Source of the DNA: a virus
Lineage: Duplodnaviria > Heunggongvirae > Uroviricota > Caudoviricetes
Length of the DNA: 4,541 nt
Direction: 5' to 3' (one strand)
IMG/VR virus record: IMGVR_UViG_2671180432_000007
Part shown: piece by piece, positions 1 through 4,541 of the stretch
Position numbering within the stretch: position 1 is the stretch's first letter
Layout of the letters: each line of letters starts with the position of its first letter
Program-made: the position numbers and the translations under genes
The notes under the pieces: generated by a model
The model's database searches: none
The model's input: only the letters and a program-made list of their open reading frames with translations
Told to the model about the DNA's origin: nothing

Positions 1-83
1 GGAAGTCGCTGTCGTTCTCAAAATCGGTGGAGCTGCATGACAAAGTCATCGGGCATTATCTGAACATAAAACACTATCAATAA
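1..83 (+). CDS. insB: IS1 transposase insB, 3' end only (26 C-terminal codons plus TAA at 81-83)
   Basis: Translation of 3-80 gives KSLSFSKSVELHDKVIGHYLNIKHYQ followed by TAA, matching the recalled C-terminus of IS1 InsB. The gene is 5'-partial at the window edge. Confidence 0.88.
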   Translation, partial: KSLSFSKSVELHDKVIGHYLNIKHYQ

Positions 84-98
84 GTTGGAGTCATTACC
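1..98 (+). mobile_element. IS1 right-end fragment (terminal 98 bp, IRR at 76-98); the rest of the element lies outside the window to the left
   Basis: Reverse complement of 76-98 is GGTAATGACTCCAACTTATTGAT, which I recognise as the IS1 right terminal inverted repeat. Plus-strand frame 3 encodes the InsB C-terminus. The gp47-like reading frame is broken exactly at 98/99. Identification is from memory of the IS1 sequence, not a database search. Confidence 0.9.
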
Positions 99-692
99 TG
101 CGCCCCCCTGTGGAATGTAGTAATAACGTTCCATAACGCGGGCACGCCATATTTCCAGATTTTCAATATCTTCACCGTCTGTAATGGTGTCAGCGTACCC
201 TGTGGACGGCAGACCACTGACGGGTGTTCCCAGTTGCATGGCAATACCATCATCCGTATTCCCCGCCGATCCCGGTTCGTCTGCCACAACAGGCACCCGG
301 AGAAGACCATCGGCTGCGGTCACCGTCGCCGTCGTGGTAAAGGTCACCTGATTATCACGCTGGATCTGCGTTCCCGCTGGCAATACCGGCGTCCCCTCTA
401 CGCCATCCCAGCGCACAAATCCCCGGGCTGCCACCGCTTCTTTTCGCGGGCAGCGTTTGATTCTGGCGTGCCGGTACAGCCAGTCTTCATCACACACGTC
501 CGGTAACAGATTTCTGGCAAGATAATCGATATACCCGTACAACGTGTGTACGGCTGCAGCCTGTACACGGGCATACACTTCCGCATCCATACGACGAAGC
601 AGCGTATCCTGCTCAAAGCGGGTTAATAAATCGCTCCGGATCATAGAAATAAGTTGCGGGAGGCCGGGGCGATAAAACTGACTGTCAGCCAT
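18..692 (-). pseudogene. Mu gp47/W-like baseplate J-family protein, 3'-truncated by IS1 insertion at 98/99
   Basis: 224-aa ORF with ATG at 692-690 and a GGAG Shine-Dalgarno 8 nt upstream. It sits last in the N-P-Q-gp46-gp47 order. Only about 198 codons (99-692) are phage-derived; the last 26 residues (GNDSNLLIVFYVQIMPDDFVMQLHRF) and the stop come from IS1 read antisense. Baseplate J proteins of Mu-like phages are about 350-380 aa (recalled, not checked). Confidence 0.78.
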
Positions 693-1095
693 TCAGTTCA
701 CTCCAGATATCATCAAAAATAATGTTGTGAATATTGCCGTCACGCTGGTAAATGGTAATGGCAAGTGCCAGCGAGTCTGTCCCGGTCCGGACAGCGTTAA
801 TATCAAGACGGGAAGCAACACCATCCTCCACCATCCACGCCAGCGCCTCACGGACATAATCTCTGGCAAGCTGCGGGGTTTTATTTGTCAGCTTGCTGCG
901 TCGCAACAGATACAAACGCGACCCCGTGCGATCATTCTGAACCGCAGGCCAGGTATCCCCCCACCATCCAAATATCCGTGGTGCATCATCACGCCCGGCA
1001 CGCCGCCATGTAAAAAGCGAAATAATCACAGCACGCGTCAGAAGGTCGATCGAAGCCCCGGTCGACACGGGTCGCCCGTTAACATTAATCATCAT
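685..1095 (-). CDS. Mu gp46/V-like small baseplate protein (GP46 family)
   Basis: 136-aa ORF between the Q-like and W-like genes. Its stop overlaps the W start by 8 nt (ATGGCTGA). Size and position match Mu gp46. Confidence 0.78.
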   Translation of the reverse strand: MMINVNGRPVSTGASIDLLTRAVIISLFTWRRAGRDDAPRIFGWWGDTWPAVQNDRTGSRLYLLRRSKLTNKTPQLARDYVREALAWMVEDGVASRLDINAVRTGTDSLALAITIYQRDGNIHNIIFDDIWSELNG

Positions 1096-1100
1096 GATTT

Positions 1101-1634
1101 TCAGCCCATCGGTTGATCCGGCGTGTCAGTGATCCCGCCACCATCACCATTTTCGGTATGTTTGTGGGCATTGTAGGCCTGCCGCATTTGCTGCATGCTG
1201 AGTCCGCCACTGTCGCAATTGTCAGTAATATCGGCGGTGGATTCGACTGGCATTTCAAAGCGCGCTTTAGGCGCGTTTTTAAAAATTATGGCCTTCCCGG
1301 CCCCGTCCACCACAATACCGGAACGGGTCAGGACAACGGACTGTCCCAGATCGTCATAAAGCGCCACTTCCCCACGTTTCAGTCCTTTCAGCCGGTAACG
1401 TCTGTCAGCCACGACCACAACCACACCATGAGAACGATCGCCCGCCGGAAATAAAGCAACGCCCTCAGCACCGTTCTGTGCGGCAGATGTAAAACCATAA
1501 GGTTCAAGGTGCTCAACGTGTTGTTTCTGATCTCCGGCTATCATTTTCAACCCTACAGACTGACACTTTCTGGCGGAATCCACCGCCGTGATGACAGCCC
1601 GGGAAATCAGATTACGAAGAGAAAACCCGTTCAT
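1101..1634 (-). CDS. Mu gp45/Q-like baseplate assembly protein V / central spike
   Basis: 177-aa ORF with ATG at 1634-1632 preceded by GAGGAGG 7 nt upstream. It overlaps the 3' end of the P-like gene by 23 nt. Size and synteny match Mu gp45 / P2 gpV. Confidence 0.8.
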   Translation of the reverse strand: MNGFSLRNLISRAVITAVDSARKCQSVGLKMIAGDQKQHVEHLEPYGFTSAAQNGAEGVALFPAGDRSHGVVVVVADRRYRLKGLKRGEVALYDDLGQSVVLTRSGIVVDGAGKAIIFKNAPKARFEMPVESTADITDNCDSGGLSMQQMRQAYNAHKHTENGDGGGITDTPDQPMG

Positions 1635-2694
1635 CAGAAATCCTCCTCAACATTTTTTTCTTCCTGGCGGTAACAGGCTCGGGGAGATAAGCATCTGCCG
1701 GGCCAACCCGTAATTCAGTCGTCGTGCCCCGGTCGTCCTGGTTATAGGTAACTTCTGCGATCACCAGTTCATCATTATCAAAATTATTCAGCGGGTCGAA
1801 AACGATGACAGATAACCCCGGACGCCATAACGCGCCACTGCCCTGCCGCCAGCCCTGAACCGTATATGTTGTCTCACGGGTAAGCGCAGCCCGTTGGCGC
1901 GCTTCAAATTCACAACGGGCCTTACAGGTTGCTGTCGTTGCTGTGCCTGACTGCTGAATCAACAAAGGGCGATAACGGGTCACGCCACTGTCCTGAATGG
2001 TCTGACGTATTGCGGCAATGGTGGCCTCACCAAAATCATCGTCGTTGCCCGGGCGCTGCCCACTGACCTGATATTCAGAAAACCGCTCTCTGATGCTTCT
2101 TTCCGTGTCACAGGAAAGAATATTCTCTCCCAGCACCAGCACCAGCGCCGTCGCCGCTTTACCTGTTCCGGGTTTTCCCAGAACCAGTCGCCCGCATTCA
2201 TCGTCATAAGCCAGCGTCTGAACCTGCCCCAGTAACCGGTTAAGACAATCGGCAACGGTTTCGCCGTGTTCCGGCTGGGCATCAATCACCGCTGTCTGCG
2301 GCACGCCAGCATCAACAACGGTGATGCCAAATGGCGCAGCCAGTTCACTGACTATTCTGAGCAGGTTTTTTCCGCTCTGCTGGAGTGGCAAAGCAGAGCA
2401 GTCAACCAGATCGGCTGTTTTGCTTCGCCCGACAATTCCCATGCTGACGCTGCTGGCGTCATAACGAAGCGGTAGTGCCTCCACATATCCGGTGAGCACA
2501 GGCTCATCCCCGATAAGCACTTCAACCAGCTCACCATTTTTTATCCGGGGTTGATAATCCCGGCTTCCGGGCCAGCGGGTGGTAATGGCAACATTAAAAT
2601 CCCGGGCAATACGGTTAATGCCCGCACTGATACGGACGGATGTCCAGCCGCCCCATTCGCGACCGGAAACCCGAAGTAAAACGGTATCATTCAT
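1612..2694 (-). CDS. Mu gp44/P-like tail protein (GPD / late control D family, baseplate hub)
   Basis: 360-aa ORF. Its ATG overlaps the N stop as ATGA (2691-2694), suggesting translational coupling. N-terminal and central motifs resemble Mu P / P2 gpD proteins as recalled. Position immediately downstream of the N-like gene. Confidence 0.83.
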   Translation of the reverse strand: MNDTVLLRVSGREWGGWTSVRISAGINRIARDFNVAITTRWPGSRDYQPRIKNGELVEVLIGDEPVLTGYVEALPLRYDASSVSMGIVGRSKTADLVDCSALPLQQSGKNLLRIVSELAAPFGITVVDAGVPQTAVIDAQPEHGETVADCLNRLLGQVQTLAYDDECGRLVLGKPGTGKAATALVLVLGENILSCDTERSIRERFSEYQVSGQRPGNDDDFGEATIAAIRQTIQDSGVTRYRPLLIQQSGTATTATCKARCEFEARQRAALTRETTYTVQGWRQGSGALWRPGLSVIVFDPLNNFDNDELVIAEVTYNQDDRGTTTELRVGPADAYLPEPVTARKKKMLRRISDERVFSS

Positions 2695-4015
2695 CTGACG
2701 GGTACCCTTAATGCCCTGACCGGAACAAAGCCCGGATGAGAGATGGCATTTCGATCCAGGATATCAGTTTCACGGGACGCATCGTCGTACCATGACGCAG
2801 CCAGAACAAGCGCAGGCAGAACTTCCGCTGGCGTTCGCTCTGCGGTTTCCTCCGTCTGAACCAGACGCGCCTGAATATCCCGGTTCAGTTCTGTACGTAA
2901 TGACGTCAGCTGAAAAAACAGCCTGTCATCCGCCGTACGCCTGAGCTCCTGTTCAATCGCCGCGTTCAGCGATTTGCGTATGATGGTGAGATTTTCCCGC
3001 GTGGGTGGTTGCGCTCTCTCATCCTGTCCTGTGCTGGCTGCCACGCTGTCAAGTGCCGGATGAGAAACGTGAATAATATCGGACTGACGTTCAGTGGAAC
3101 CACCAACAGCCACAACCGCCTGCTGATTTTTCACCAGGCTTCCGGGTTGTGGCAGTGAAGTGACCGCCCTTGTGGCTTCGCTGATTGCCGTCGTCCGGAT
3201 GACAGCAGCCACAAGGTTTGTCTGCTGTTTTTGCCTGATAACCGATGCGGAATCTGTGGGCCACACCGCACGCGGTGCCAGTCCTGGGTCCAGCGTAATG
3301 CCGGACATTGTCGTTATGGACTGCACCAGATCCTGTGTGTTATCCACCAGCCGGGTTCCGGCCCGCCAGGTATCCTGCAACGTATGCACAAAATCACTGG
3401 CAACCGACGGCGGCATCAGAATGACGGATAAATCGCCCTGCAGTAGTCTCGCTCCGGCAGAAACAGCCGAATTAACCATTTTGAAAGCTGTCTGAACGGT
3501 TCCCAGCATATCGGTCGTCCGGGCAATAACATCGTTCTGAATAAAGTCCGGTATTCCCGCGAGATCAAAATCGCCGAACATGTCTTCAATCAACTCATCC
3601 AGGAATACGGACGACTCCTCCAGTTTTCTGGCGGTTGCAGCTCCGGCGACCGGAAATGACAGTTCCNNNNNNNNNNNNNNNNNNNNNNNNNNNNNNNNNN
3701 NNNNNNNNNNNNNNNNNNNNNNNNNNNNNNNNNNNNNNNNNNNNNNNNNNNNNNNNNNNNNNNNNNNNNNNNNNNNNNNNNNNNNNNNNNNNNNNNNNNN
3801 NNNNNNNNNNNNNNNNNNNNNNNNNNNNNNNNNNNNNNNNNNNNNNNNNNNNNTGGGTATTCATGGACCTGAACGCGGCGTCCGAACGAACCCTCGTCGC
3901 TCTCCACCGAAAACGGAACGCCACGAAATGAAGCGTCGTAAAGATTATCGCGCCAATTGATACCTGAAGATGCAGAAAAGAGTGAAGAAAGAGAAGGTAA
4001 AGAAGGTAAGTCCAT
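2691..4015 (-). CDS. Mu gp43/N-like DNA circulation protein, interrupted by a scaffold gap (3667-3853)
   Basis: The 5' part (4015 to 3854) encodes MDLPSLPSLSSLFSASSGINWRDNLYDASFRGVPFSVESDEGSFGRRVQVHEYP, a typical DNA_circ_N signature, with ATG at 4015-4013 and GGAG 5 nt upstream. The frame ending at 2691 is open all the way from the gap edge (3665), so the 300-aa track ORF is the 3' part of the same gene. Frame continuity across the gap cannot be judged because the N-run length is arbitrary. Confidence 0.75.
3667..3853. other. Assembly/scaffold gap (187 Ns)
   Basis: Uninterrupted run of n characters. Confidence 1.
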
Positions 4016-4029
4016 ACTGTCTCCACTAT

Positions 4030-4053
4030 AAAAAAACCGCCAATTTCTGGCGG
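4030..4053 (-). terminator. Putative rho-independent terminator downstream of the low-GC ORF and immediately upstream of the N start
   Basis: On the minus strand: stem CCGCCA (4053-4048), loop of 5 nt, stem TGGCGG (4042-4037), then 7 consecutive T (4036-4030). It begins 8 nt after the ORF stop (4064-4062). The stem is short (6 bp, 5 of them GC). Confidence 0.55.
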
Positions 4054-4061
4054 CTTATATA

Positions 4062-4457
4062 TTAATCATCATTAATATCTTTCATATTCAATTTGCAATT
4101 TTCGTAGGTCACTCCCGACTCGCCATTAACATTAACTCCAGCTCTGATATTCCCGTTTTCTTTTACATCTACAAAAAACTGGCCTCTTGGCATCTTGAAC
4201 GCAAATGTAAAACCAACAGTATCTGAATCAAAATCATCATCTTTATATATTGGGATCAAAAATGTCATCGTCGCTGGTGATGCATTGTTTGCAAAATCAA
4301 ATACACCTATACTTTTGCCGAATTCATAAGAAGCTTTTCTCAATATAATCGCACCGCTGGCAGAAGGGGATGGGCACGATATCCTCAGTTGTCTGAATCC
4401 ATCTGTATCCAAGTCAACGTCATTATCTGCAGATGTTTTAACGGGTAATGACTCCAA
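4062..4457 (-). CDS. Hypothetical protein in a low-GC island; function unknown; possibly 5'-truncated or pseudogenised at the IS1 junction
   Basis: 131-codon ORF in a region of about 38% GC. The apparent start is a TTG at 4457-4455 inside the IS1 end, with no Shine-Dalgarno and an in-frame stop further upstream in IS1. Only 4062-4443 is non-IS sequence. The first internal ATG (codon 64) also lacks a clear Shine-Dalgarno. I recognise no family. Confidence 0.4.
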   Translation of the reverse strand: MESLPVKTSADNDVDLDTDGFRQLRISCPSPSASGAIILRKASYEFGKSIGVFDFANNASPATMTFLIPIYKDDDFDSDTVGFTFAFKMPRGQFFVDVKENGNIRAGVNVNGESGVTYENCKLNMKDINDD

Positions 4458-4541
4458 CTTATTGATAGTGTTTTATGTTCAGATAATGCCCGATGACTTT
4501 GTCATGCAGCTCCACCGATTTTGAGAACGACAGCGACTTCC
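4444..4541 (-). mobile_element. IS1 right-end fragment (terminal 98 bp, IRR at 4444-4466), inverted relative to the left copy; the rest of the element lies outside the window to the right
   Basis: 4444-4541 is the exact reverse complement of 1-98 (98/98). The plus strand at 4444-4466 reads GGTAATGACTCCAACTTATTGAT. Identity breaks at the next base inward (position 99 versus 4443). Confidence 0.9.
4459..4541 (-). CDS. insB: IS1 transposase insB, 3' end only (second, inverted copy)
   Basis: Mirror image of feature 1-83: the minus strand encodes KSLSFSKSVELHDKVIGHYLNIKHYQ followed by a stop. Confidence 0.88.
   Translation of the reverse strand, partial: KSLSFSKSVELHDKVIGHYLNIKHYQ

Follow-up and report, generated by a model that had tools for sequence, protein, structure and literature searches.

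Background

Tn9 and Tn1681 each hold a few kilobases of DNA bracketed by two copies of the insertion sequence (IS) IS1, which are direct in Tn9 and inverted in Tn1681. Tn9 is a composite transposon with IS1 copies, and insertion of IS1 typically generates target duplications of 8-9 bp (PMC12065110). IS1 is also the commonest IS in Shigella sonnei, and its expansion in Shigella, with the resulting pseudogenes and broken prophages, is well documented (PMC7373316). Here we analyze a stretch of 4,541 nucleotides (hereafter the window), IMG/VR record IMGVR_UViG_2671180432_000007 of the Caudoviricetes, in which a set of phage baseplate genes is bracketed by two inverted IS1 ends. Our concern is how this arrangement came about.

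Several described systems resemble the window to differing degrees. One is the locus beside ssrA-smpB in the S. sonnei genomes Ss046 and 53G, which is the same locus as that in the window and encodes the same fusion open reading frame (ORF), Q3YYR0_SHISS; the window differs in ending 98 bases into each IS1 and in having a run of N in its DNA circularization gene. The Stx2e phage phiP27 (NC_003356 / AJ298298) shares the order of the tail and baseplate module, with 96.8% nucleotide identity over window positions 99-3666. Whereas phiP27 is intact and free of IS1, in S. sonnei only a remnant is left, which an IS3-family element truncates upstream of the sheath gene. The IS1 copies themselves have in common with those of plasmid R100 a length of 768 bp, terminal inverted repeats, the insA and insB' frames, the A6C site and a 9-bp target duplication. 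There is no substantive difference between them, and the nine substitutions that separate them fit a resident chromosomal variant that multiplied in S. sonnei (PMC7373316). The likeness to Tn9 and Tn1681 lies in the two IS1 copies around a few kilobases of DNA; in contrast to these transposons, the passenger here is native to its surroundings, each IS1 has its own duplication and there is no second copy of the unit.

We read the window as an S. sonnei short-read contig from the tail module of a defective phiP27-like prophage, in which two IS1 copies made independent simple insertions; we place the probability of this reading at about 0.95. The arrangement is thus ordinary IS1-driven decay of the S. 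sonnei genome, already annotated and not novel. Public S. sonnei records have contained the locus since the Ss046 genome, and its biological significance is very small. It serves as a worked example: when a short contig ends in a perfect inverted repeat, the cause can simply be two IS copies that were collapsed, and 9-bp duplications, compared with a closed genome, tell simple insertion from inversion or composite transposition.

Results and discussion

The terminal repeats are the ends of two complete IS1 copies

A preliminary description of the window, made from its letters alone, had reported that positions 1-98 and 4444-4541 are exact reverse complements. A scripted recheck gave the same result, with arms of 98 nt that are 100% complementary and lie 4345 nt apart. 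A match of this length cannot have arisen by chance within 4.5 kb, and no other repeat in the whole window approaches 98 bp. The description had further assigned both arms to the end of IS1 that is proximal to the right inverted repeat (IRR), with the termini facing inward. This assignment is borne out by 100% identity of the 98-base ends to annotated IS1A/IS1B in at least 5000 plasmid records. They are the final 98 bases of the 768-bp IS1, which spans GGTGATGCTGCC... to ...GAGTCATTACC, and comprise the end of the insB' frame (...SVELHDKVIGHYLNIKHYQ followed by the stop) and then the IRR. The left end (1..98, plus strand) holds the 3' end of insB' and the IRR, its transposase reading toward the segment; the right end (4444..4541, minus strand) likewise holds the last 98 bases with the IRR end and is inverted relative to the left copy. 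Both are truncated by the end of the contig, and both IRR termini point inward, to the segment.

The window proper holds only these last 98 bp of either IS1, and the full copies were read from related loci. Their recovery relied on an ORF specific to the left junction: the frame of the baseplate J (gp47) gene continues into IS1 and reaches a stop at 18-20, which yields a 224-aa fusion ORF at 18-692 on the minus strand, its final 26 residues being derived from IS1 antisense sequence. An exact look-up of the fusion protein in an assembly collection returned 226 blocks, and ten 20.7-kb loci (L002-L011), which represent at least 21 places, were obtained from long contigs. In all ten, both IS1 copies are 768 bp long (in L002 the full left copy occupies 10595-11362 and the full right copy 5415-6182), and both bear the imperfect terminal inverted repeats of about 23 bp, GGTGATGCTGCCAACTTACTGAT / GGTAATGACTCCAACTTATTGAT. 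The repeat therefore continues outward into a full IS1 and was shortened by assembly, as had been anticipated. A comparison of the two copies in five of the loci showed them to be identical or 1 nt apart. The IS1 of L002 matches that beside catA1 in R100 at 759/768 positions (9 mismatches, 98.8% identity). In it insA is open, the frameshift motif AAAAAAC (A6C) stands at position 307, and insB' is open until the stop before the IRR. The called genes of the IS1 copies match the Pfam domains Zn_ribbon_InsA, HTH_Tnp_IS1 and DDE_Tnp_IS1.

The contig ends 98 bases into IS1 on both sides because near-identical, abundant IS1 copies block the assembler: with short reads of less than 768 bp, assemblers stop a contig about a k-mer's length into the repeat. 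The 98-bp repeat is thus an assembly effect, and its exact value probably reflects the k-mer setting of the assembler. Other S. sonnei drafts carry a partial fusion protein on contigs of 4500, 4508, 4544, 4552, 4553 and 4662 bases, which are the same 4345-bp segment with a differing remainder of IS1 at each end. The longest contig with the fusion protein measures 2-5 kb in 186/226 blocks.

Target duplications, empty sites and the origin of the arrangement

The inner flanks named in the preliminary description, TGCGCCCCC at 99..107 and GTTTTAACG at 4435..4443, are exact, and its proposed comparison of inner with outer 9-mers was run on complete S. sonnei genomes. Direct 9-mers were found around each copy. 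In L002-L011 both 9-mers recur directly outside the respective IS1, the outer junctions that carry them being present in 10/10 loci, so that in the orientation of the window TGCGCCCCC stands on either side of the left copy and GTTTTAACG on either side of the right copy. In the orientation of the loci these direct 9-bp repeats read CGTTAAAAC-IS1-CGTTAAAAC and GGGGGCGCA-IS1-GGGGGCGCA. An uninterrupted prophage in Escherichia coli (L001) supplies the corresponding empty sites, ...cagggtcTGCGCCCCCctgtgg... and ...gcagatGTTTTAACGttacta..., in which each 9-mer occurs once and the outer sequence is the same. The segment together with both outer flanks is collinear with this prophage. A direct 9-mer for each copy, single 9-mers in the empty sites and collinearity together indicate two independent simple insertions. 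At the left inverted repeat (IRL) ends of the two IS1 copies in the window's own genome, the outer flanks are expected to be ...AGGGTCTGCGCCCCC and GTTTTAACGTTACTA....

The preferred course of events is as follows. Beside ssrA/smpB, S. sonnei carries a defective prophage of the phiP27-like kind whose baseplate genes are of Mu type, and two IS1 elements transposed into it independently. One entered the baseplate J (gp47) gene; the other entered the small AT-rich gene that separates the tape-measure gene from the DNA circularization gene. Every insertion created its own 9-bp duplication, and the opposite orientation of the two copies is a matter of chance. The insertions probably inactivate the tail module, and the process appears to be one of neutral decay of a prophage remnant. 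Some points weigh against this account. A scan of a species-representative genome collection for the left junction gave no match; the outer flanks of the window are taken from other S. sonnei genomes, of which L002 is 100% identical across all non-N bases; the N run falls 67 bases short of the sequence that it replaces; and assemblies show the majority orientation only, so that minority inverted molecules are possible.

Of the three scenarios entertained in the preliminary description, it is the two independent insertions that stand, while the 9-mers and the collinearity tell against the other two. One of these is a duplicative (replicative, intramolecular) inversion, wherein a single IS1 makes an inverted second copy of itself and flips the intervening segment. 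An inverted IS1 pair is the expected product of such an event, and copies that are identical or 1 nt apart would suit it. However, the segment lies in the same direction between its two outer flanks as it does in the uninterrupted prophage. Each copy is also framed by a direct 9-bp repeat of its own, whereas the reaction would have divided the 9-mers between the copies in reverse-complemented form. Collinearity and target duplications together exclude this inversion, whose probability we regard as negligible. The other is the arrival of the baseplate segment as a single unit in an IS1 composite transposon like Tn9 or Tn1681. Two IS1 copies do surround a 4.3-kb passenger here, and inverted IS1 pairs are able to mobilize the DNA between them (PMC12065110). 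Yet the passenger lies in its native context, with the flanking genes continuing past both IS1 copies, and the unlike outer 9-mers (TGCGCCCCC and GTTTTAACG) leave no duplication around the unit as a whole. Moreover, the unit is seen only at the ssrA-adjacent S. sonnei prophage: both IS1 junctions are absent from 5426 complete E. coli genomes (0/5426), where the records cover the IS1 or the phage part alone. In E. coli and phiP27 the segment itself is found only within the prophage, and a search of plasmids gave nothing beyond weak matches (2-7% coverage) to phage-like genes that are unrelated to it. With a native context, unlike outer 9-mers, a separate duplication for each IS and no plasmid copies, composite arrival is likewise excluded, and we accord it as little weight as the inversion.

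Somewhat less improbable, though still very unlikely, is that the segment is invertible by RecA-dependent recombination between the 768-bp inverted IS1 copies, with both orientations coexisting. Near-perfect inverted homology of 768 bp at a distance of 4.3 kb is a workable substrate, and inversions mediated by IS elements occur often both in experimental evolution (PMC12065110) and in Shigella (PMC8072062). The caution of the preliminary description that the segment might flip is valid in principle; nevertheless, all ten long contigs show the native, collinear orientation and none an inverted version, and the genes are already broken, so that flipping would have no phenotype. It strikes us as similarly improbable that a minority of S. 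sonnei cells, which consensus assemblies would not show, have a 4.3-kb segment that is latently invertible by recombination or mobilizable as an IS1 composite. The least probable proposal of all is a site-specific invertase switch of the Mu G segment / Gin type, with a repeat unrelated to IS1. Mu-like phages do have invertible tail-fiber segments, and the segment here is a Mu-type tail module. However, it holds baseplate genes, not alternative tail-fiber tips; all 98 bases of the repeat belong to IS1, which extends to 768 bp; and the window and the 10-kb flanks contain no recombinase gene other than the IS transposases. A Gin/Cin/Hin-type segment, which would have short inverted recombination sites and a serine invertase gene beside them, was rejected on the identity of the repeats and the lack of such a recombinase.

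The host prophage and its relatives

The fusion ORF protein occurs on 230 contigs, and the source databases name S. sonnei, including Ss046, with whose UniProt entry (Q3YYR0_SHISS) the protein sequence is identical. In the Ss046 and other records this gp47::IS1 ORF is mislabeled as 'head assembly protein'; its product is a baseplate J protein that has been truncated. Among the ten long-contig loci is HE616528.1 (L005), from S. sonnei 53G of lineage II, which is 99.8% identical to the window over 1-3666 and 100% identical over 3854-4541. The two-IS1 arrangement is present in at least lineages II (53G) and III (Ss046) of S. sonnei.

Gene order is the same in 10/10 loci. An IS3-family element is followed by the tail sheath, tube, assembly chaperone and tape measure genes and by a full IS1; then come the phrog_5586 remnant, DNA_circ, gp44, gp45, gp46 and the N-terminal part of gp47; and after a full inverted IS1 the locus continues with the C-terminal part of gp47, gp48, the tail fiber genes, the transfer-messenger RNA (tmRNA) gene and smpB. 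From the tape measure to the tail fiber genes, the IS1 copies aside, this is also the order in the uninterrupted E. coli prophage. The interior of the segment is 97-99% identical to prophages of 43 complete E. coli genomes. In S. sonnei the prophage is a remnant in which the IS3-family element lies directly upstream of the tail sheath gene (L002 1-953 and 16090-17149 were inspected). Its other end adjoins ssrA, the tmRNA gene, and smpB, where phages commonly integrate. In the E. coli relative FDAARGOS_944 (L001 1-1137), a frameshifted ipaH effector gene lies just past the tail fiber genes.

Genes of the bracketed segment

The 4345-bp segment between the arms has all its genes on the minus strand, and is a Mu-type / phiP27-like contractile tail baseplate module. 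The baseplate content noticed earlier is supported by Pfam matches for all five genes, DNA_circ (gp43), gp44, gp45, gp46 and gp47, each above the curated cut-off and in that order. The left IS1 severs the baseplate J / gp47 gene, of which the 5' part (99..692; 198/360 codons) matches Baseplate_J with E = 1.2e-24; the C-terminal part, with Baseplate_J_C, is found beyond the IS1 in L002-L011. Next to it are genes for a gp46 family baseplate protein (685..1095; 136 aa; GP46, E = 4.5e-33) and a Mu gp45-like baseplate assembly protein V, or spike (1101..1634; 177 aa; Phage_Mu_Gp45, E = 2.1e-26). These are followed by the gene for a Mu gp44 / GpP-like baseplate hub (1612..2694; 360 aa), which has four GpP/gp44 Pfam domains and belongs to phrog_177 (baseplate hub).

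The Mu gp43-like DNA circularization gene (2691..4015; phrog_184) is broken in the window by a run of 187 N at 3667..3853, on which the preliminary description was silent. The protein is intact in L002 (6611-8002; 463 aa; DNA_circ_N, E = 3e-36). All the S. sonnei loci and the uninterrupted E. coli prophage have 254 bases in place of the 187 N, and the shortfall of 67 bases puts the window's copy of the gene out of frame. The 254 bases correspond to codons 55-139 of the DNA circularization protein. They are ordinary coding sequence (57% GC) and occur once per genome in the E. coli genomes that have them. The idea that the run hides a repeat that broke the assembly was rejected on these grounds. 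The run may mark a scaffold gap whose size was estimated, a mask that altered the length or a real deletion.

At the other end of the segment, the right IS1 took the first 101 bases of the small AT-rich gene, leaving a remnant of its 3' 382 bases (4062..4443, minus strand). Complete in the uninterrupted prophage (L001 10030-10512), this phrog_5586 gene encodes 160 aa and matches its PHROGs family, of unknown function, with E = 9.7e-89; a Pfam search with it gave no match. Just 3' of the gene lies a terminator-like hairpin with a T run (4034..4056, minus strand). Both fall in a stretch of low GC (4020-4443; about 0.34-0.39, against about 0.55 in the remaining window) between the tape-measure and DNA circularization genes, and many E. 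coli relatives of the prophage align only to window position 4019, lacking this stretch. With its own gene and terminator-like hairpin, it looks like a moron.

Some minor variation was also observed among the S. sonnei genomes. L003 (GCA_040189005.1) has single-base deletions at window positions 951, 957 and 1653 that are seen in this assembly only; they lie in short homopolymer runs plus one further position, split gp46 and shorten gp44, and look more like long-read consensus errors than real mutations. A repeat of the hexamer CCAGCA within gp44 (window 2130-2147, minus strand) differs in copy number. Three copies are present in the window and L002, whereas 53G and L007 have 2 and seven other loci have 4. 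The difference alters the gp44-like protein by Val-Leu units, to 358, 360 or 362 aa, and is a small in-frame variable-number tandem repeat inside a dead prophage.

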